This document shows, one piece after another, positions 4,653 to 60,311 of a DNA stretch of 64,000 nucleotides. Origin of the DNA: Octopus vulgaris (Eukaryota); NCBI GenBank assembly GCA_951406725.2, contig OX597818.1, positions 120,342,001 through 120,406,000 of the forward strand. The letters are read 5' to 3'. Under the pieces are notes generated by a model. It made no database searches. It worked only from the letters and a program-made list of their open reading frames with translations, and was not told where the DNA came from. Within the stretch, counting starts at the first letter, position 1. Each line of letters begins with the position of its first letter. Position numbers and translations under genes: made by a program.

Positions 4653-5386
4653 CACTCAGCTTCACTTAAAATCCGTCTTCCTTGAGAGATGTTAATATTA
4701 TTTATTTCCTATATGTAGTACTGCAACCAAGTCTAAAAATCGTACTTCAAAGCTGTAATTCATATTTAAATACTTAAATTGTAGTTTAGAAATTGTATAA
4801 ACGTGTTTTTACAAATGTTATCGGAAGTATCTAGCCAGCTAACAGCCATTTTAGCACCCACCATCTCCGTTCTTGATAGCTTTAATCTTGTCATAATGCA
4901 TCTCGCTCACTCACTCACTCACTCACTCACTCCCTCACTCACTCACTCACTCACTCACTCGTTCGCTCACATAAACACAAACACAGACACACACACACAT
5001 ACACACACACACACTCTATCTTTCTCTCTCTCACTCCTTCTTTATCTGTCTGTCTCTTTATGCATAAAGTCATCTTGCAGCCTTCTTCAATAACAGGCAA
5101 AAGCGACCTCATTATCATGGCTGATGACATAATGGGCAACATTAAGATAGCGTTTTAGTATACACAGAAACTATTATAAAGGCACACGGAAGGAAAAAGG
5201 ATCAAGGCTTTTGTAATGCAAATAGCCCAACCAGTTGCAACACTAATTTCAGAAAGTCGGCCAGCCACTCAGGCGAACATGAGCCGGATAGGATTGTTTC
5301 ACTCACACAAAATGAAATGAACTGATTGTTTTGACTAGCGGGTCTCTCTGCAGTGAATAATGTACCACTCAACATAAACATGTCTT

Positions 5387-5813
5387 GGATCTTTTCGGTT
5401 TGAACGGCAGTTTTTAACATAATTTCTAGGTAACTAAAAAATTTTAAACTTCGTATACTGGTAGAATGTGTTTATAAAACATCTTTTTCCCTTGGTTTTA
5501 TTGAGAACATTCTATAGTTTGTAAGATATTTGTTGCTTTTTTTTATTCAATTTCTGCAATTTCAACCAATCAATGATCGTCTATTGAGGTGAAAACATTC
5601 TGTGTCGTATGAATATGTCCCTCGTTTAAAAAACAAACTGGGTTTATTTACATTTCTGAAGAAAAAAAGATACCCTTCCCCCACCCCTAACCCTAACCCT
5701 AACTAACCCTAAAATAGATTGAAATGCAATAGATCGATACTAGGGTCATAATTATGGGTGACAATTTCATATGACACCGCTAGAAAAAACTGCCGTTCAA
5801 ACTGAAACGATCC
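5387..5813 (+). mobile_element. Merlin-like MITE with internal (CCCTAA)n
   Basis: TIRs GGATCTTTTCGGTTTGAACGGCAGTTTTT / AAAAAACTGCCGTTCAAACTGAAACGATCC; perfect 8-bp TSD CATGTCTT (5379-5386, 5814-5821). Confidence 0.9.
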
Positions 5814-13259: not shown

Positions 13260-13630
13260 ATTGCAAGATCCAAGGAGTTAAGGGTAGGAAGTTAGTAAAC
13301 TTCGAGCAGTCTGTTGTAGGTATAAAAAACAACTTTCAGGAACAATAATAGTGCATTGACATAGAAGAATGTAAGCTTTTCCCATATCGAAGTCCGATAA
13401 GCTAATAAAAGTTTTATAGTTCACGGTTAGCATCTGAGGTTGCTATGAATGCGAATAAAAATCCAAATTGAGTGAGCAGAGCAGGTAAAATCCTGGCTAC
13501 ATATGTTTCCTAGCTTTCAGATCCTCAGAAGTAATAATTACTCAACGAGGGGGTACCCCACTACTTACTCATCAGGCCGAATATACCTTAGTCGAATGAA
13601 GGTTACATTGTCGTTAAGGAATTCCAAGTA
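13260..13630 (-). mobile_element. Penelope-pLTR-like repeat B, copy 1 (carries a hammerhead motif)
   Basis: Homologous to 20545-20875; begins next to a (CATA)n array. Confidence 0.7.
13495..13578 (-). ncRNA. Minimal type I hammerhead ribozyme motif with extended helix II
   Basis: GGC-CUGAUGA-[~60 nt with hairpins]-GAAA-CAUAUG-UA-GCC; palindromic stem III; helix II base imperfect in this copy. Confidence 0.65.
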
Positions 13631-13729
13631 AACTTGCGGAGATATAATTTAAAATGAGTGGTAAAGCCGGAAGAACGGAGTTAAAAGACAAAATAGAAAA
13701 ACACATGTTTGTTCCTGCGACTGCACTCT

Positions 13730-20105: not shown

Positions 20106-20194
<89 letters not shown>

Positions 20195-20400
20195 AATTAG
20201 GGTATCTACGAGATACCACCATGCTGAAAATAGCAGCCATGATCTGACTTTAAAACCACCTTAATTGTCCATATATCAACACAGAGAGAAAACAAAGAGA
20301 CAAGATGAAACTAGCAAAAAATTACTGGATAATTCTAGATCCAGATTTCTGACTTTGCATTTATGAATGCTTTGCCTCGTCAGTAGAATACACACAGAAG
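20195..20400 (-). mobile_element. Penelope-pLTR-like repeat A, copy 1
   Basis: Inverted homolog of 21400-21610; contains a hammerhead motif. Confidence 0.75.
20332..20389 (-). ncRNA. Minimal type I hammerhead ribozyme motif
   Basis: AUUCUA-CUGACGA-GGC AAA GCAUU CAUA AAUGC AAA GUC-A-GAAA-UCUGGA-UC-UAGAAU: 6-bp stem I, intact CUGANGA/GAAA/UH core, one extra A before GAAA. Confidence 0.75.
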
Positions 20401-20454
20401 AGAAACGTAAACACTTGATAAATCGTTATTTTATTTTTAAATTAACAATCTTAT

Positions 20455-20506
<52 letters not shown>

Positions 20507-20544
20507 CACATACATAAACACACACGTGTGTGTGTGTACAAGTG

Positions 20545-20955
20545 AGATCCAAGGATCAAGGTATAGGCAGCTAGTGCGCTTCGGGCAATCCGTAGAAGAA
20601 ATAAATTTTTGGGCGGAGAATGTTGTGAGTTTTCCCCGTAACGAAGTACGATAAGCTGAAAAAGTTAATTTCATAGTTCACGGTTAGCAACAGAAGTTGT
20701 ATATGCGAATAATCATCTAAAAATTAGGGAATGGAGTAGATAAAATCCAGGCTACAAATGTTTCATAGCTAGTGGAACCTCGGAGGTAGTAAATTATCCA
20801 AACGAGGGGCAAGCTACTCATCAGACCAAAGTTACCTTGATTATAGGAAGTTTACATCGCTGCTAGGAGATCCCGTGTTAACTCGTTGGGGATTCGATCG
20901 AAATGAAACATATGTATCCTGGATTTTATCTACTCCATTCCCAAATATTTTGGTT
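20545..20955 (-). mobile_element. Penelope-pLTR-like repeat B, copy 2, with a partial inverted copy at 20905-20955
   Basis: Homologous to 13260-13630; gaaacatatgtatcctggattttatctactccattccc is the inverse of 20727-20764. Confidence 0.7.
20750..20827 (-). ncRNA. Minimal type I hammerhead ribozyme motif with extended helix II
   Basis: GGU-CUGAUGA-GUAGC..CCUCG..CGAGG..GCUAU-GAAA-CAUUUG-UA-GCC. Confidence 0.7.
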
Positions 20956-20962
20956 ATATATA

Positions 20963-20990
20963 TCTCTTATATAAAACCCGTTCTGTGTGT

Positions 20991-21034
<44 letters not shown>

Positions 21035-21200
21035 CTACTAGCATCTCGGGCATTCTCCATCCGATTGCGCTCAATTTTGGTATGTAGATACCGACGGTAT
21101 CAGGGCGTGTATAAGCCTTGAAAAAAATTACAAAAATCGATTCCAGGTGAGAATGCGATCGATAAAGCCATGAGAAATCGTTTTTCTTTGGAATAGAGAA
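20963..21200 (+). mobile_element. Probable non-autonomous Helitron 5' portion
   Basis: TCTCTTATATAAAA, then (GT)n, then ccgattgcgctcaattttggtatgtag; 3' end not found. Confidence 0.4.
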
Positions 21201-21399
21201 AAAGTTTATCGTTATTTCTTCTTTTGCTGGTGTCTCAAATTTAGGTTAAATTAGTGTTTCTCAAAGGGGAGGCCTATGGGACGGTCGGACAAGTTGTTTT
21301 GAGAAAATTTGGTTTGAATGTTTGACAACTCAGCACCATCCATTGGACGGGAGGGGGCGTTTTGCTCGTATACATACATATTTGTATTTATGTACCCAT

Positions 21400-21610
21400 C
21401 TGACATACTCAATTGACGAAGGCAGAGCTTATTTGAAGCAAAGTCAGAAATCCAGGATCTTGAATTATCCAGTAAAATGTTTTTTACTAGTTTATTTTGT
21501 CTCTCTGTCTTATCTCATGGCGCGATATGAATATTTAAGGTGGTTTTTAGGATCAGGGTTCTGACTGCTATTTCGGCATGGTGGTATCTATCAGATACCC
21601 TTATTTGTAG
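21400..21610 (+). mobile_element. Penelope-pLTR-like repeat A, copy 2, with a degenerate hammerhead at 21407-21465
   Basis: UCAA-UUGACGA-A-GGC..GCUU..AAGC..GUC-A-GAAA-UCCAGGA-UC-UUGA; C3 mutated to U. Confidence 0.7.
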
Positions 21611-22212: not shown

Positions 22213-22428
22213 GACTTTACTTTTGTTGTTACTATAACTGTTACAATTGCTATTGCTGCTACTACGGCTATCATTGTTGTTAGTGGTATTGGTTCTCAGG
22301 AATGGAAAGCAATATTGTAATAATATGTAGCGTTGTCATGGTAGTCATTCTGCTTGGTTTCTATATTGCCAGTGGATGGCATAGTCTGTGCAGAAAAGTG
22401 TAGCAATTGTTATAAGAGAATGAGAATG

Positions 22429-22848
22429 GGGTCTTTTCGGTTTGACCGGCAGTTTTTTTTAATAATTTCCTCGTAACTAAAAACTTTTAAACTTCGTATA
22501 CTGGTAGAATGTGTTTATAAAACATCTTTTTCTCTTGACTTTATTGAGGAAATTCTATAGTTTGTAAGATATTTGTTGTTTTTTTCTTCTTCAATTTCTG
22601 CAATTTCAACCAATCAATGACGTCTATTGAGGTAAAAAAGCATTCTGTGCCGTATGAATATGTCCCTCGTTTAAGAAACAGATTGGGTTTATTTACATTT
22701 CTGAAGAAAAAAAGATACCCTTCCCCCACCCCCAACCCTAACCCTAAAACAGATTGAAATGTAATAGATCGATACTAAGGTCATAATTATGGGTGACAAT
22801 TTCATATGACACCGCTAGAAAAAACTGCCGGTCAAACCGAAAAGATCC
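22429..22848 (+). mobile_element. Merlin-like MITE
   Basis: Same TIRs and body as 5387-5813; degenerate TSD TGAGAATG/TCGGAATG. Confidence 0.88.
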
Positions 22849-23104
22849 TCGGAATGAACTGAAACAAACTATTTTCTCATAAACCACAAACATAAAATAT
22901 AAAATTTTTACAATAGCTATTTTTGTACCATACTTAATGTAGATACACCACTGAAAGGCAAATAACTGCGGTATTCGTCCGGAGAAACTATCATACAAAA
23001 AAACAACAGCAGCAGACGAAATTAGTCAAGTAACGGTGGCGAAAATTCTAGATGTTCATTTCTGTTGATTCTGGCCGCTTGCCGCCTTCTCAAACCCAAA
23101 TAAT

Positions 23105-23270: not shown

Positions 23271-23611
23271 TTTCACACAAATAATAAGAATAAGTCATCA
23301 GGTGCCATTTTAAAATTTGCAGCTGTTCTAGATTCTACTCAAAAGTCAATTGTTATAAAATGCAATAAATAATAAAGATGTTGACACTTAAATTGATTCA
23401 GGAAGTATAGAATATTGTATTCACACATCTTTTGCTATTAAATGAAGTTGGCTATTAAATCTACTTGTATAGTTATTACGACTTCTTCGACATAGAAGAA
23501 AGTAATTAGAGGTTTACAATGTGATATTATTCTCAAGACAAAATGTATTAGAATATCAAACTTTCAATGGTAGGCGATCTTTGAACAAGTCTGATTTAAA
23601 TTTTAGATCTT

Positions 23612-24043
23612 GGATCTTTTCGGTTTGAACGGCAGGCAGTTTTTAAAATAATTTCCACGTAACTAAAAACTTTTAAACTTCGTATACTGGTAAAATGTGT
23701 TTATAAAACATCTTTTTCTCTTGGCTTTATTGAGAAAACTCTATAGTTTGTAAGATATTTGTTGTTTTTTTTTCTTCAATTTCTGCAATTTCAACCAATC
23801 AATGACGTCTATTGAGGTGAAAACATTCTGTGCCGTATGAATATGTCCCTCGTTTAAGAAACAGATTGGGTTTATTTACATTTCTGAAGAAAAAAAAGAT
23901 ACCCTTCCCCCCACCCCTAACTCTAACTAACCCTAACGCTAAAACAGATTGAAATGCAATAGATCGATACTAGGGTCATAATTATGGGTGACAATTTCAT
24001 ATGACACCGCTAGAAAAAACTGCCGTTCAAACCGAAAAGATCC
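23612..24043 (+). mobile_element. Merlin-like MITE
   Basis: TIRs as above; TSD TAGATCTT/TAGATATT. Confidence 0.9.
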
Positions 24044-24360
24044 TAGATATTAAATACAATGGTATTTTAGATGCCGTCTCAATCTGTGGCTTAACAACTA
24101 TGTTTATAAGCTCGATTCAAATTTTTTAAGTTTTGATATTCAGAAAGGGATAAACAATGCAAAGATGCGTAGCACCCTCTGGATGGCCGTTAATACAAAC
24201 GCGGTAACTATATTATCACAATGTGATGCAGGACTAGAAATTTTAATTTGAAATCGAGGTATGTGAAAAATTTACGTGTTCACATACAATATATATATTT
24301 AGTTTAGATTCTGTTTTCGTCATCTATGGTGAAGTTCTTACAATTGCTAGTTAGTGGTAG

Positions 24361-28715: not shown

Positions 28716-31563
28716 CACGCAGATCGAGTTGTTAATACAGAAGGCATTAACAGGCACCATCATTAATAACAAATGGTGGTACGCCATAAAAAGAGCCATC
28801 GAATATGAGTCTATTAGGTTTAGCATAAGTTTTGCTAAGAAGGGATGTAGAATAGGAGATGGTTTAGTTAAGGAACTAGAAGAAGCCTGGAGAACTGGTA
28901 ATGCGGACCAAGCGAGGGTGAAAAGACTGGAGTTAAACCAGCATCTTGAAGTCCAACACATGGGAAGTATTGCCAGATCTAAGTTACGTGCATTGGGAAG
29001 TGAAGCAATCACAGCCGTGGGATGGGCCCGAGTGGTGGAAGCTCAACAAGGAAATAGTTCCACTATTTGGTCTTTGACGAATCAAAATGGTGTCTTGGTA
29101 AACGAACCCTAGAAAATGTGTGAGGCCTTTCGGGAGTACTTCGCCCAGCTGTTCGGGGGTGGCGGCGGTCCTGATGGTGGGAGAGCCCTCGAGAACTTTC
29201 TTGCCGAACTGCCGTGTCTCTCGGGGTCTTGCGAAGGGCCAATCACGCCTGTGAAGGTGATGGAGGCTTTGGCCGACTGTAAAGCGGGTAAGTCGCTGGG
29301 ACTTGATGGTCTTCTGTACGAGCTGTATAAATGTATGCCAGACTTGTTCGGACATCTACTGGCTGACGTGTACGCGAACTGGCAACAAAATGGGTCTATC
29401 CCCAGATCTGTGCGCCGACGAATAGTGACGTTGATCAGAAAGGATCCGAACAAGGGGGACGTTATAGAGCGTTTCAGGCCCATCACTCTGTTAAACGCAG
29501 AAGTGAAGATTTTGGTCAAAGTTTTAGCAAAAAGGTTAGTGCGTGTCGCGAATGGTATAGTCGGGGAGGCAAAGACATGTACCATCCAAGGCAGAACCAT
29601 TCAGGATACCCTCCACCTTATTCGCTATACCATAGAGAGGGTTGGTAATAAATTTGGCAAAGGTGGGGCATTGGTACATTTGGACCAGTCTGAAGCTTTT
29701 GATAGGGTCGACCATCGATGCCTGGCAACTGTGCTTTACCAGTTCTCCAGGATTTTTCTAGTTCCTTAACTGTGCTTGCGCGATTCGGCCTGGGCCTTGG
29801 CTTCCTCAGGTGGTTTATCGCTCTGTACTACAACATTGACTCGATACTTCGGGTGAACGGTTCCGTTCGTCAAGGATATCCACTCTCACCACTTTTGTAT
29901 GTGGTGGCTCTCGAGCTCCTACTGCGAAGGTTGAGTGACATCCCGAGAGAACCAGGTCTGGAGGAGTTTGTTACGGCTTACGTGGATGATATCACTATCA
30001 GCGTAACCTCAGTAGCACGCCTACGTAAAGTGGGTAAGACTATTGAGGTTTACGAGATGGTGGCAGGAGCAAAGATTAACCGGGAAAAATCGGTCGGCTT
30101 GCAGCTCGGCACCTGGGTTGGTAAGTCGATAACTTGAGACAGCGTTGTTGGGCGCTGGACGGAAGGACCGGTTAAGTTGGCGGGAGTTTGGTTCGGACCA
30201 GGCCTCCAGGTAGAGAAAAACTGGGTGGAGGTATTGAGCAGGGTGGCTGCAGTAGTCAAGACCTGGTCTTGGCGGTGGCTATCTCTGAAAGGGAGGGTGG
30301 AGGTGACCAATGTATTTATCGCATCGGTCATTACCTACCGCCTGACCATCGTGCCCTGTCCGGAATCGTGGGTGATCAGGGTGCAGAGACAGCTCTTTAG
30401 CTTTTTGAGGAAGGGCAGGTCGCCACTTGTGAAACGCTTTGTTTGCTGTCAAAAGCCTTTAAAGGGAGGTTTAGGGATGCTTTGGTTAATATTGCGCAGG
30501 CATGCGTTGAGGTTGGGGCACCTCTGGATTCTCCTGGATAGTGAACGGGTGTGGTCTCCGCTGGCCAGACATGTTCCCCGAGTTCAAAAGTTTTTGCAAA
30601 TAGGAAGCCTGGTGTTCTCGTAGACCGAGGTCGAGTGAATGGCATAAAGAGTGCCGTAAGGCCCTCTTACTATTCCGGCGCTCGGTCAACGCCAACGGTG
30701 GGGATTCCACACGGATTTTATATAGTGGGTTGGTAGAGTCTGAATGCGACAATGGCCTAGGAGCGACTCTAGGTCTCGTGTTTATTCAACTAGACAGCCT
30801 GTTTCACCGTACATTCGGGTTCAGAACTTTGGATAACTTCCAAAAGTCCTTGGCCTGGCAATGCTACAGAGGTGCCTTGCCCGTTTGGGATAAGCTCGCA
30901 AGACACGGTAAGCGTCAGTCGCCGACCTGTCCAAGATACGGGGGAGACAGAGAAACCGTCCCTCACGCTGTGTCCGGAGATATCTGAAATGTGGGCTTAT
31001 GCTGAACACCTGTTGTCCGGCGAAGGAAGATTTCAGCTGTCGACTGAGTCAATCATAAAAATTGACCCACCGGGAGTTTTAACAAACGAAGGTAAGAATT
31101 GTTTTCTCACGGTTGTAGCAATAGCGAAAGAGGCAGTGTGGAAGACTAGGATAAAAGGGATTAAGACTGGCAACTTTATCTCTGGCCACAATTTACGATC
31201 ATTTTTTACTTTTTATTTGAAAAGGAAGGTGTGGCTGGAGAAGAGGTGTCTGTCGGAGTGTACGTTCTAAAAGAGATGGAAGCATGCTGCACGAGTGTTG
31301 TGCGTGCAAGGAGCCGTGTGAATAGATGGAAAAAAGAGCAAAAAAAAAAAAGGTACCAGTGATAGATCGGGGCTTGTGGGGTCAGAGCGTGGCCTGATCA
31401 TCGCTTCATTTGTATTGTCTCTGTATTGTTAATTTCATTCGATTTTTTAATATTTTATTTAATTTTTAAAGTCACATTATATGTAAAACCATATCGCATT
31501 ACTGATCCCATCAATTGTTCTGTCCATTTCTATGTTTAGCCCCCGGTGGGCAATAAAGAAATT
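28716..31563 (+). mobile_element. 5'-truncated, inactive Tx1/L1-clade LINE ORF2 plus 3' UTR
   Basis: GKSLGLDGLLYELY, FRPITLLNAEVKILVKVL, LDQSEAFDRVDH, VRQGYPLSPLLY, AYVDDI, GAKINREKS, LSLKGR, GGLGM, CPRYGGDRETVPH; multiple stops and frameshifts; tail ..gtgggcaataaagaaatt. Confidence 0.9.
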
Positions 31564-47411: not shown

Positions 47412-48279
47412 TTAATGGTACATCTAAACTCATTGACATCCTCTTGTTACCAACACAGACCCTTCTTAGATTTTTCTGATTTCAGACTTTACTCTAACCA
47501 TATTAATTATCTTTGATCAGCTGATTCATTGAAAACTAACAGATTTTCATTCAGATAACATAAATTTTTTTTTTCCTTTTTTCAAATGATTTTCTGTAAT
47601 TACTTTATCATAAATGGATATTTCTAAAAGTGCTAATATTTTTACTAAATACTATTCTGCAATTAGTAGTATAAAAATTTTTTTAGAATTACTTAAAATC
47701 ACATTTTAGTAATATTTTTAAATACTACTTTGTAATATTTTTATAGCTTTTAATGTGTTTAAATATCTTACGATCTGAATGTATCCGCTTATGTACATTA
47801 ATAGAAAGAGCTAACACCACAAAATTTCTTTTTTTTTTATTGCATGAATCAAATTTTTCTTACAGGAATTAAATTTTCAATTTACTTATCAAAAAAATAT
47901 TGTTCTATCTTTATTTTGATCCAGTGGTATCTTTTCTTCTTTGAACCATTTTGCTGTAGCAATTTACGTAAGTCAATGTAAATTTGCAGAAATCTCTACC
48001 ATCTAAATATAGAAAAATCATTACAAAATTAATTACCAGGACAATCCCTATAATAACTTTTATGATAAAGATGACTGAAGTAACAAGTGTTTTCCTGACA
48101 CCAGTCTTGATAATCACTTAGAAAAATATAACCAATGAAATTACTCATTATGATCTACAGTATCCTCTTAGTTGAACCAACATGAGAGCCTTTATATGGT
48201 CATTCAACCTGCTGGAAATAACAGCCAAACCTCTCCCCCTACTGTCTAAAAATTAAATGGAAAGGACATTTTAGATAAT

Positions 48280-48679
48280 GGATCTTTTCGGTTTGAACGG
48301 CAGTTTTTAACATAATTTCTAGGTAACTAAAAAATTTTAAACTTTGTATACTGGTAAAATGTGTTTATAAAACATCTTTTTCTCTTGGCTTTATTGAGAA
48401 AATTCTATAGTTTGTAAGATATTTCTTGTTTTTTTTCTTCAATTTCTGCAATTTCAACCAATCACTGGCATCCATTGAGGTAAAAAACATTCTGTGCCGT
48501 ATGAATATGTCCCTCGTTTAAGAAACAGATTGGGTTTATTTACATTTGGAAGAAAAAAGATACCCTAACTAACCCTAACACAGATTGAAATGCAATAGAT
48601 CAATACTAGGGTCATAATTATGGGTGACAATTTCATATGACACCGCTAGAAAAAACTGCCGGTCAAACCGAAAAAATCC
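48280..48679 (+). mobile_element. Merlin-like MITE inserted in the old (CAA)-tailed repeat
   Basis: Perfect TSD TAGATAAT (48272-48279, 48680-48687). Confidence 0.9.
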
Positions 48680-48949
48680 TAGATAATGTATATTGTAAAA
48701 ACTTGACATGGTCCCAGCTAGAATGCTGTTTATTAATCATAAATCTATTTGTTGATTGAGAACTACATTAACACCATCAACAGCCAGCTTTTTTTAGTAC
48801 TAAATATATGATAGAAATGTTATTGTATGTTAATTTACTGTTATTTTGTTTGATGGAGTGAAGAGGACTGGCTGTGTAGGTTTCTAGTTATATCTCTTTC
48901 TAATCTTGCTGAAGTTCAGCTTTAGCTTTCATCCTTCTGGCATCAATTG

Positions 48950-51957: not shown

Positions 51958-52453
51958 TTAAAGTAATCTAAACTGAAACCATGCTTCAAAATTTCATGTT
52001 AATTTTTGCTCCAAGCACCCACTTAATAATAATGACAAAATTCTTTACTATTTTGTAAATTAATGTTAAATTCTTTATTATTTTAGAAATAATTGAAACA
52101 AAGTCAGTGTAATCCAACAGAAATATGATAAACAAATGTTGGCTAAAGCTGTTTGAGGATCTCTGTTAGCAGTCTTGTTCCCTCATTCCTCAAAGAGTTG
52201 TCAATGCTGGCTAGTTCACTTTCACCATTGGACCCTGTTCATATCCAAGTTGGCAACTTTATTAAATTGAATATTGCATCTGGTTAGAATAGATGAATGC
52301 CATTTACTTGTGAGGTGTATTTATCTTTCGCATGGCTCCACAGACATAACCTTTTTTGTCTTATATAATACTCCATCTCCAAAGTAATCCAAAATGTTGT
52401 GATCCTGTTTTGTTGATCAACAGCCTCTTCTAATTTCCCTAGCTACATTATAC

Positions 52454-52850
52454 GGATCTTTTCGCTTTGACTGGCAGATTTTTAAAATATTTTCTTTGTA
52501 ACTAAGCACTTTTAAACTTCGTATACTGGTAGAATGTGTTTATAAAGCATCTTTTTCTCTTGGCTTTCTTGAGAAAATTCTGTAGTTTGTAAGCTATTTG
52601 TTGTTTAATTTCTTGCATTTTGGCAATTTCAACCAACCAATGACGTCTATTGAGGTGAATACAATCTCCGAATTTTTGTCAACAACAATTATTTGCAGTG
52701 TCATATGAATTTGTCACTGTTATTTATGAGAAAAAAGATACCTTGTGGCCATAAACTGAGGGGGGTCACTCGTAAACAGAGCTAGATAACAAAACCGTTC
52801 CCTCTTTAGTGTCCACCCATAATTATGACCCGGTCAAAGCGAACAGATCC
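52454..52850 (+). mobile_element. Merlin-like MITE, variant subfamily without telomeric repeats
   Basis: GGATCTTTTCGCTTTGAC..GTCAAAGCGAACAGATCC; perfect TSD CATTATAC. Confidence 0.88.
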
Positions 52851-56272: not shown

Positions 56273-59157
56273 CACACACACAAAAGGGAGTTTTTTCAGT
56301 TTCAGTTGCTAAATCTATTCACAAGGTTTTGGTTAGCCCAGAGTTATAGATGAAAGCCCTTTACTAAGGCTCCACTCCATGGTCTTAAGTTCAGTTCCTG
56401 TGCAGTACCTTGGACAAGTGTCTTTCACTATAGCTCCGGGCTGGTCAAAGACATTTGAATGGAATAACTAAATTCTTCAATAGGCCTTTGTTTTCAAAAC
56501 AGTAAGGTGTGATTGGATGGAGATCTTACTTTCTATTTTTAGCAAGTTGAGCAATCATGTAAAGGTTCAACCATTGACATGCAAAGGTGTGGGGGAGGTG
56601 TAGTAACGTCTATGAGGATAAAAGGTGTTTGAGTTTTAAAAAGGAGTTAATTAACATGTTGCACCGTTAACAATCTTATCTTGATTGTATTCTGTTGGAA
56701 CTGCCAACTTTGCTGAATTTGAATATTGTCAGCAGTAGAATATTGTTTCCATTGTGTCCCCACTCCTCTTAAATTTTGGCAGTGGTGAAGAGGGATCTTC
56801 CATTAACCCCTCCTCCCTTGCCATCTCCCCTCTAAATATCAATAATTAGTGAAAAATCTTTTGCTGTAAAAGAATTATGAAAGTAGATGATTGTTTGCCA
56901 AGTTGCCTTCTCTCTCAGTTTATAAAAGATAAGCTATCAGAGTAAATAGGTAAATGGAATGACGAATATGAACATTATTATTATCTTTATGGACATATTG
57001 TAAACCGAATTTTACAGGCATGTATAAGCTTTTATTAAACCAGCTGCTCTAATATACATGTTAGCATTCTATATTAAATTTTAATAGTACACTTTGATCT
57101 TAGCGAAAAGGCTGAGAAGCAATATTAAATATTAATAGTAATAATGTTAGTCACATTTTAAGGCACAAAAATACATGCATGCACATACTTTGAGGTAGAA
57201 ACACAATGGGCAAACAATATTTGCTGCAGAAATGCATACATACTGCAAATGATATACACAAGCATATGCTTCTGTTTGTGTGTAGTATTTTTAGACTGGG
57301 TATAAAATCACTTTATAAAAAGTGGCAATAATGGTAATTGCTTTTGTCATCATCATCATCGTTGTTTTAATGTCCGACTTTTTTCATTGTGTATGGGTTG
57401 GATGGAATTTATTGAAGAAGGTTTGTCCACAGCCGGATGCCTGTACTGTCACTAACCCTCACCTGTTTCCAAGTAAGAGGATATTTCTTCATGGCCAGAC
57501 ATATTTTCGTGGAAGATTGGAAGCAAAGGACAATGGTCACCAAATACTACTTGCATGACTGGACACTTGTGTGTGCATGCATATGCATGTGTGCGCACAC
57601 TCACACTCACTCACTCACTCTCTCTCTCTCACACACACACATACACACAATGGGTTTCTTTCAGTTTCTATCTGCCAAATCCACTTACAAGTTGGGCATG
57701 TGAGGAAAATATCTTCTGCTATAGCCCCTGGCTGACCAGTGCCTTGCAAGTGAATCTGGTGAATGGAAACTATGAAAGCCCATTGTATATACGTGTGTAT
57801 ATGTGTGTTTGTTGCCCTCCAAGGGGCCTGACAATTGGCATTGGTTTGTTTACCTCCTTTAACATTAGCAGTTTTGTATAAGAGATCAATATGTACCAGA
57901 CTAAAAAAACGTAAGTGCTGGGTTTGATTTGTTTGACTAAAACCATTCGAGATGGTGCTCCAGCATGGCTGCAGTCCAATGACTGAAACAAGTAAAAGAT
58001 AAAAGATTGGATAGTTCTGTCCTGGATATACAAAAAGATTGGCTGTGAAGGCTCACAATTTCAATACTGAAGAAAGGTAAACACACACACATGCACATTC
58101 ACCCTTGTATGCATACACATGTTTCTGGGTGTGTATACCCTGTATATGGCAGGCTTCCTACATTTTCCATATGCCAATTCCACTTACAAGGCCTTGGTCA
58201 AACCAAGGCCGTAGTTGAAGACGCTTGCCCTTGGTGCCATGCATGTCTCAAATGTCCAATTTGTCCCTATCTTCCAAGTCAGTTATTTTGAGCATGTTGA
58301 GTAACCATATTGAGACACCTTGTCTACTTCTCTCTTTTAGTACTTGTTTTATCAACAGGTAATTATTTCAACAATTCTGGATTGATAAGGTAAACTGGAT
58401 CTGGGTGAGGATTTGAACTCAAAATGTTAAAGGGTTTACTTAATACCTCAAAGTATTTTTCGCCTACTGCTCTACCAATTTTGCTATCAATCTGCCTTCT
58501 GAAGATCTCCACAAAAAAGGTAAAATAAATGAATGAATAAATAAATGGCAAGCCACTTTTAAAAACATGTTTCTCTAATTTATTATCTATTGTCACATGA
58601 TAACCTCATATTCTTCACTTTGTTCTAATTTACAACTTCTGTCATGAGATATTTATCTCATTGCTGTCAGATGCACTAATATTAAGGACAGTCAAGGTGA
58701 CCCTAAAACTTGCCCTCCTTTGATGATACCCCATGTAAAATTGCTAATTGTAATGTTTATAGAGGATTGGAATCATTGAAGGAGTAGCCTTAATATGCAA
58801 GAAATAGCAGCTACACCTCCATCAAGGCACATCTTACTGTTTTTTTTCCTCAAAATAAAAAGGATGGACTATATTGGATAAAAGTAGTTGGGTACAGATT
58901 GTCTGAAATGACAGTCATATCTGGAATGTTTTCAAATCATAGGTCTGTTGGATCATGGTTGACCTGAGGCTAAACATCTTGTGATTTTCAGTGACCTATC
59001 TCTTATCTGTTTTAATTCACCTCCAGTAATCGCAAAAACATCTGTTTGGCAAAAGAGATGATAATGTTAACCATACTTCCAAAGCAATGCACTGCCTTTC
59101 GAAAATAGTGAGGAATTTAGTAAATGCTGTTCTTGAGGAGACCTATTGAGTCTGTTT

Positions 59158-59485
59158 TAATCTGTTTTAGGGTTAGTTAGGGTTAGGGGTGGGAGAAGAG
59201 TATCTTTTTTTCTTCAGAAATGTAAATAAACCCAATCTGTTTCTTAAACGAGGGACATATTCATATGGCACAGAATGTTTTCACCTCAATGGACATCATT
59301 GATTGGTTGAAATTGAAGAAATTGAAGATAAAAAACAACAAATATCTTACAAACTATAGAATTTTCTCAATAAAGCCAAGAGAAAAAGATGTTTTATAAG
59401 CACATTCTACCAGTATAGGAAGTTTAAAAGTGTTTAGTTATGTGGAAATTATTTAAAAAAACTGCCGGTCAAACCAAGAAGATCC
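59158..59485 (-). mobile_element. Merlin-like MITE truncated just beyond its TTAGGG tract
   Basis: Reverse complement of the left ~330 bp of the family; one TIR. Confidence 0.85.
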
Positions 59486-60311
59486 CTATTCCAGTCATGT
59501 CATCTTAGATGCAGCACCTTGGGCATAAGTCTTCTACTATAGCCTCAGCCTGACTAATTCCTTGGGAGTGGATTTGGTAGATGAGCACCCTTGTCTAGTC
59601 ATCATGATAGAAATGAGATTGTTTATTTCCAGTCTATTGTGAAAAATGTTTCTAGCAATATCCCCTTGTATAGAAACAGTTGAGGTTTGGCAACAGCTAG
59701 GGCATCTGACTGTACAGAATCTGTCTCAACAAATTCCATCTGATCCTTGCAAACATGGATAAGAGGATGTTAAATGATGATGATGATTAGTTAAGAGGTA
59801 GTTGAAGTGGTCAGTCAACAACTACACTTTCTCTCACGTCATACAATTTCTACTCTACTTGCTCTACCAATCCATACTACTTACACCATCCTACTCTGGC
59901 TTCTCTCTCTCTTTCACTTTACATCCACTTATCGGCATTATTCCACTTTATCTCTCAATTTCCTCATTTTACAGTTTGGCTTCCTAAAAGACTACAAATG
60001 TTTGATTTCGTTTTTACTTCAAAATATAAAACGTATTCTGCTGCTTGAATTAAATTTTTTTTATTTCTATAAATTTATCATACAGGGCAAAAAAAGATTG
60101 GATTAATCAAATTAATGTTATGAAATTGAAAAAATGAACCCATTTCATTACATTTTATACTGATTTGGTGTGTTAGTGTATTCTTAGTGACTCATTCTCT
60201 AACAACTCAATAATCCAACTCCACAACTTTGGCGTGGACAATGTGCCACCTTAGCTGTGGGCAACTGTCACAAATGTGAGGTTAAACTAAGTTGATGAAT
60301 CAGTTTATTAA

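Follow-up and report, generated by a model that had tools for sequence, protein, structure and literature searches.

The window, by which we mean the whole 64-kb stretch of Octopus vulgaris DNA considered here, holds two copies of a short dispersed repeat, each carrying a hammerhead ribozyme motif. Copy 1, delimited with the help of a BLAST match to copy 2, spans ~217 bp (20195..20411, minus strand) and lies near the centre of its family, departing from the family majority at ~5-6 substitution sites. Copy 2 (21386..21606, plus strand), placed between TA-rich short repeats, is a diverged member, either an older copy or one belonging to another subfamily. The two are 77% identical over ~205 bp (BLAST), and they lie on opposite strands, facing apart, with ~1 kb between them. 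A 7-bp hairpin stands near the 3' end (20201..20217, minus strand, in copy 1), with the same arms in both copies and a different loop. Beside the 3' end of copy 1 is a (TA)n tract (20120..20194), its likely target. At its 5' end copy 1 is adjoined by a 46-bp repeated piece (20412..20457, plus strand), which has its own plateau of contig depth and ends on (TA)n; a further (TA)n tract (20459..20505) lies beyond copy 1 and this piece.

The neighbourhood is rich in other repeats. A second hammerhead repeat family is present at 20540-20880, between copy 1 and copy 2, and at 13262-13640, both on the minus strand and 72% identical to each other. Its motif has a canonical CUGAUGA/GAAA core, a long helix II, a GUA site and a helix III that is palindromic and reads ACAUAUGU in one of the copies, and both copies end in CA/TG-type microsatellites. 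A 48-bp inverted piece of this second family (20903-20950, plus strand), 92% identical to 20719-20766, starts just before GAAA and faces away from the minus-strand copy, which fits an inverted truncated copy of the kind left by Penelope-like elements (PLEs). It is followed by a separate stretch (20955-21370, plus strand) that opens with an AT-rich head and contains a (TG)n tract, which we take to resemble non-autonomous Helitron-type repeats. Elsewhere in the window a ~430-bp family recurs at 85-92% identity (5383-5813, 22424-22849, 23600-24049, 48268-48685, 52450-52667 and 59155-59491); it is MITE-like in that its ends match in reverse (22429-22452 vs 22825-22848).

With its stem I extended, the type I hammerhead of copy 1 covers 20325..20397 on the minus strand, and its core motif at 20332-20389 parses just as the initial annotation had described it: a 6-bp stem I, CUGACGA, a 3-bp stem II that carries an AAA/AAA loop with a 5-bp hairpin above it, the extra A (20350), GAAA, an 8-nt near-palindrome AUCUGGAU and an AUC site, the predicted cut falling after C17 (20338). 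The palindromic helix III (20339..20346, minus strand) has 8 nt in this copy, while in other copies it is a perfect 8-nt palindrome or spans 9 nt around an unpaired centre. In copy 2 the motif occupies 21400..21472 (plus strand), with a 9-nt helix III and C17 at 21459. Here the core reads UUGACGA, with U3 in the place of C3 (21413) and G8 unchanged, a departure from the CUGANGA box that had escaped the initial annotation, and stem I has only 4 contiguous pairs. The GAAA box, the A15.1-U16.1 pair and H17 (the AUC site) are present in both copies. Stem I is also longer than was first perceived: in both copies it continues past an internal loop and closes with CUG/CAG. On paper, stems I, II and III can all be drawn.

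The feature of most use here is the extra A, located between C11.1 and G12. The initial annotation had rightly seen an atypical A before GAAA in both copies (20350 and 21446), and it is a trait of the family; its presence means that neither copy has the canonical core spacing, where 10.1-11.1 stands directly beside G12. An unpaired nucleotide between 9 and 10.1 is found in copy 2, where an unpaired A flanks stem II on both sides (21420 and 21446), and not in copy 1, where the unpaired base sits on the opposite side of stem II from the usual 9/10.1 place. Among the contig variants listed at a frequency of at least 8%, none has an insertion between 9 and 10.1.

Differences between the two copies had been taken as compensatory stem changes, and this survives only in part. 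When the 15 pairs of stems I and III are counted (stem II was excluded because the alignment of the copies mis-registers it), one is changed on both sides, two on one side, two are broken in copy 2 and ten are invariant, with the two-sided change and both one-sided changes falling in the extended stem I. This count does not exceed its shuffle control (264/500), and a comparison of two sequences cannot. The shift from GCAUU/AAUGC to GCUU/AAGC, once read as compensation, is a symmetric loss of one pair.

Is the motif beyond chance? A type I hammerhead descriptor that tolerates at most one extra nucleotide on each side of stem II, run over the 64-kb window in both orientations, matched only the two sites described above; the match for copy 2 is 21409-21463, and the tolerance for the extra A was chosen after the sequence had been seen. 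Among 150 local dinucleotide shuffles, there was no match of copy-1 grade and no instance of two matches of copy-2 grade; two matches at the loosest descriptor appeared 4 times. In viral contigs used as a control, the core letters matched 117 loci (80 distinct), and in none of the 80 were they accompanied by a stem I of at least 4 and a stem II of at least 3 pairs. The descriptor result, the shuffles and the viral control together establish that the hammerhead motif is real. A search with Rfam, the check proposed at the outset, gave no hammerhead at gathering score, nor among the 29 matches to E=10; canonical descriptors and Rfam miss a motif with an A between C11.1 and G12.

The same controls bear on another view of the repeat, namely a non-autonomous DNA element of the MITE or Helitron-like type, with hairpins that mimic a hammerhead by chance. 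Such an element would be in keeping with the fixed length, the TA-rich targets and the conserved 7-bp hairpin that lies within a few bases of the 3' end. However, copy 1 has no terminal inverted repeats and copy 2 only a 6-mer, the 3' hairpin is not followed by the CTRR end that comes after it in Helitrons, and the full core with three helices is found neither in the 150 shuffles nor in the 80 distinct viral matches, which makes this explanation very improbable.

The extent and abundance of the family were assessed with contigs of four public runs from two organisms, aligned to 20192-20457 at 80% likeness, a procedure that favours copy-1-like sequences. This gave 1365 contigs for X1 (organism A), 746 for X3 (organism B), 131 for X9 and 15 for X15. 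Summed contig depth was not treated as copy number, and X9 and X15, assembled contigs that are RNA by guess only, are uninformative on transcription or cleavage with their 131 and 15 contigs. At least two organisms harbour this dispersed repeat in abundance, and the repeat family of ~200 bp suggested initially is borne out as a unit of ~215 bp. Among the loose ends listed, the 5' end of the family falls at 20399-20411 and runs into TA/CA repeats, with entry into microsatellite in at least 14 contigs of X1, 7 of X3, 4 of X9 and 1 of X15. Copy 2 starts with ATTTATGT, the same as the loose end of X3 and X15 at 20399. The 3' end lies at ~20195 and is followed by (TA)n. The unit does not begin at the cut site; its start lies 10-22 nt before the core stem I. 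Depth peaks in X1 drop from the 3' end toward the motif (about 380k, 197k and 43k), a weak hint of 5' truncation. As a separate observation, a 1651-nt contig of X15 has a diverged repeat end (20192-20342, with 26 differences) at one of its ends and runs on past this piece; the contig may represent a longer parent element. Relatives of the family were found neither in viral contig collections, where the 117 loci with a looser core include no relative and were all treated as chance, nor in collections of prokaryote genomes (0 matches). Metagenome collections gave a single match, on a coding-like contig of 55% GC with no BLAST similarity to the window, again ascribed to chance.

Variation within the family was examined next to the fold. 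Positions that vary at 8% or more in X1 or X3 number 5 of 58 within the motif vs 8 of 137 outside. Three of the five lie in helices, and each keeps its pair: U-A becomes U.G in stem I (47-58%); U.G becomes C-G in helix III, at 20343, which makes the palindrome perfect (79-93% of ungapped depth, that is, 82% in X1, 79% in X3 and 93% in X9); and G.U becomes G-C in stem II (9-14% of depth, and also in the X1 loose-end consensus). The remaining two are located in the hairpin loop. In another common form a C is inserted in the middle of the palindrome (loose ends 20342 and 20344), which resembles copy 2. In the contigs of the four runs no variant at 8% or above is listed in the 13 core bases or at the extra A, and this A is kept in the loose-end consensuses of X1 (34 contigs), X3 (15) and X15 (2). 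Neither the invariant core, set against the outside rate (P about 0.43), nor the three pair-keeping transitions out of three (P about 0.17) is significant, and the variation is weakly consistent with a conserved ribozyme fold.

Whether that fold is still functional is a distinct question. The extra A may have inactivated a canonical ribozyme in the source copy, by displacing G12 and completing a rival CUGAC/GUCAG helix, the family having then spread without cleavage as a hammerhead relic; this concerns activity and is compatible with a PLE origin. Energies speak in its favour, the hammerhead fold of copy 1 being at -5.8 kcal/mol vs -14.3 kcal/mol for the minimum-energy fold, which is the rival one. 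Core conservation, moreover, is not above background, and in a study of anole PLE hammerhead mutants insertion in vitro was unaffected, with no reads ending at the cut site (PMC11167929). In the ensemble of the whole element the probability of stem I is 0.0. Yet that of the rival helix is only 0.002, copy 2 retains the A and the pairing at 77% identity, and the same A is found in an unrelated published PLE motif. Moreover, the G.U to G-C variant strengthens stem II of the hammerhead while breaking the CUGAC/GUCAG helix, which favours the hammerhead reading. We regard a relic as conceivable, though rather unlikely. When two copy-1 motifs are cofolded, a rival intermolecular helix (-35.0 kcal/mol) is preferred to the double hammerhead (-20.2 kcal/mol), a preference not taken as decisive because nearest-neighbour energies ignore core and tertiary contacts.

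Arrangement provides a further line of evidence. Ten joints are listed between pieces of the repeat, each in one contig: six join opposite strands at differing breakpoints, four are skips and none is head-to-tail, joint polarity being not given directly in the contig listing. One X3 contig links the 3' end of the family (20200) to 20420 on the opposite strand, and 12 X3 contigs have different sequence upstream of 20420. This gives a hint, no stronger, that the piece at 20412-20457 is the inverted tail of the copy 1 insertion, being otherwise the end of another repeat; the locus may then be a single insertion, made of an inverted tail and a terminal repeat, in a TA tract. Two combinations of the copies were discarded. 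A dimer in cis of copy 1 and copy 2 is excluded by their location on opposite strands. The idea that they are halves of one insertion conflicts with their identity of 77%, given that copy 1 is near the family majority, and with the presence of another repeat family between them.

The retrozyme reading of the initial annotation has in its favour a type I motif and a unit of ~215 bp, but lacks the tandem arrangement that defines retrozymes, which is absent from the window and from the listed joints. In its wider form, the proposal is that of a free-standing non-autonomous element of fixed length (a solo retrozyme, or a SINE-like element), which would descend from a PLE terminal repeat (pLTR) and depend on a PLE protein acting in trans for its movement; its source copies may be tandem elsewhere and yield small circular RNAs. 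The listed 5' ends, which cluster at 20399-20411 and pass straight into microsatellite, would fit this, as would the near full length of both copies in the window, and retrozymes are described as coming from pLTRs and leaving dispersed monomers (bioRxiv 10.64898/2026.07.22.740005). By contrast, BLAST found no tandem copy of the repeat in the 64-kb window and none of the ten listed joints is head-to-tail (a weak argument, as contigs break at microsatellites), while the copies begin upstream of the motif rather than at the cut site. A SINE-like nature is further opposed by the lack of tRNA genes (0 with ARAGORN) and of A/B boxes in either copy (0 matches by simple patterns). Overall we regard this alternative, the main one to a PLE stump, as unlikely.

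No coding partner of the repeat was seen in the window. Among the 38 ORFs of at least 100 aa that were tested for a Penelope-type frame, out of 71 listed (those omitted being mostly microsatellite frames), none has a GIY-YIG match. Matches to reverse transcriptase are limited to RVT_1/zf-RVT pieces at 674-2209 and 29113-30984, 8-19 kb from the repeat. These are broken LINE-like reverse transcriptase frames (Pfam RVT_1 and zf-RVT, plus strand), and the former has an in-frame tract of GAA triplets near 1570-1640. A coding role for the repeat itself was rejected, since the two copies share no start codon or intact frame, though some pLTRs hold the start of an ORF.

On balance, we infer that the copies are independent short pLTR insertions of an endonuclease-positive PLE, an explanation that is probably, if by no means certainly, correct. 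Such stumps are suggested by the length of the unit, the palindromic helix III, the TA targets, the inverted junctions and the possible inverted tail, and the repeat is likely to belong to the PLE pLTR class. A PLE protein combining reverse transcriptase and GIY-YIG domains would nick (TA)n DNA, where RNA would be copied from its 3' end at the nick. Synthesis would often halt once ~215 nt had been copied, a short way upstream of the hammerhead, and at times an inverted piece would be left. In the parent element, cleavage after AUC would occur only via two same-sense motifs paired by the palindromic helix III, or with the help of a protein, and the extra A would be looped out during the process. 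Neither motif is likely to be active at this locus, since copy 1 has no partner on its strand and the core of copy 2 carries the C3U change. Among the points against PLE stumps is that the listed 5' loose ends enter microsatellite without shared upstream sequence, which fits an element of fixed length equally well.

What, then, does the extra A mean? The element as such is of an ordinary kind, hammerheads being a known and very frequent feature of Penelope-type repeats. For the A, the alternatives are that the core tolerates an insertion beside the general base, or that these elements spread with a dead ribozyme; the fate of the extra-A core thus bears on what PLE hammerheads are for. A bolder proposal, which we consider quite unlikely, is that of a fixed-length, promoter-less element mobilised by a PLE, with its hammerhead an active variant of the core. 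The unpaired base would have moved from the 5' to the 3' side of stem II, beside the general base G12, and would have been kept there across subfamilies 23% apart and across species. Were this true, the accepted hammerhead core would be widened, and a large class of ribozymes in animals would be escaping standard descriptors. Although it characterises the present family as a whole, the extra A is already in print (PMC4209133, Fig. S3): AGAAA occurs in 1 of the 56 core boxes of that figure, the 29th in its column, which the order of the figure's text assigns to the row of a Cotesia bracovirus PLE. The available part of that article neither comments on nor tests AGAAA. In a survey of natural hammerheads, core insertions were recorded as A6a, U13a and 2a/2b, together with changes at C3/G8, and some of these variants cleave; the core variants in the part of the article at hand do not include an insertion between 11.1 and 12 (Perreault et al., 2011, PMC3088659). 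Literature searches returned nothing relevant on an 11.1/12 insertion and no report of hammerheads in octopus or cephalopods, and the supplement of an octopus repeat paper has 0 mentions of hammerhead or ribozyme.

The repeat has much in common with the PLE hammerheads of Cervera and De la Pena (2014, PMC4209133), being of type I, with CUGANGA/GAAA/UH, a G10.1-C11.1 pair, a palindromic helix III, a U-rich upstream flank and dispersed single motifs. The palindromic helix III and G10.1-C11.1 are indeed listed there as hallmarks of metazoan PLE hammerheads. These motifs are abundant and mostly single, some lying 100-700 bp apart on opposite strands (PMC4209133), and dimer cleavage, slow or protein-assisted, has been reported for them (PMC4209133, PMC11167929). 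In the table of the former article, as far as available, a U3 core with G8, as in copy 2, also belongs to Saccoglossus 1, and the unpaired nucleotide between 9 and 10.1 is missing in 2 rows. Unlike the motifs published there, as far as they are available, the present family has the extra A as the trait of an abundant family, a copy (copy 1) without the unpaired 9/10.1 base, a two-tiered helix II with an internal loop, a helix III of 8-9 nt, a stem I that extends through an internal loop, and no linked PLE ORF. Animal non-LTR retrozymes are likewise non-coding, GC-poor and equipped with a type I hammerhead, in units of 200-400 bp (PMC7229834; bioRxiv 10.64898/2026.07.22.740005). Retrozymes, however, form tandem units, usually have canonical motifs and give circular RNAs, as these sources describe, whereas the copies here are solo, inverted and start upstream of the motif.

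A comparison with Penelope elements themselves shows a unit of ~215 bp here vs pLTRs of 193-218 bp, together with an inverted pLTR and a 31-bp tail, in PMC3846280. Some pLTRs contain the start of an ORF (PMC11167929, PMC3846280); unlike them, the present repeat has no ORF start or coding neighbour in the window, and the link to a tail is that of one contig. The text of the supplement of PMC8557442, in its available part, has 0 occurrences of four short motifs taken from both hammerhead repeat families. The same article describes a bias of insertion into (TA)n in Naiad PLEs and a microsatellite bias in Neptune. It is with endonuclease-positive Penelope elements that the repeat would share its inverted shortened junctions, its possible inverted tail of 38-46 bp and its AT-rich or (TA)n targets.
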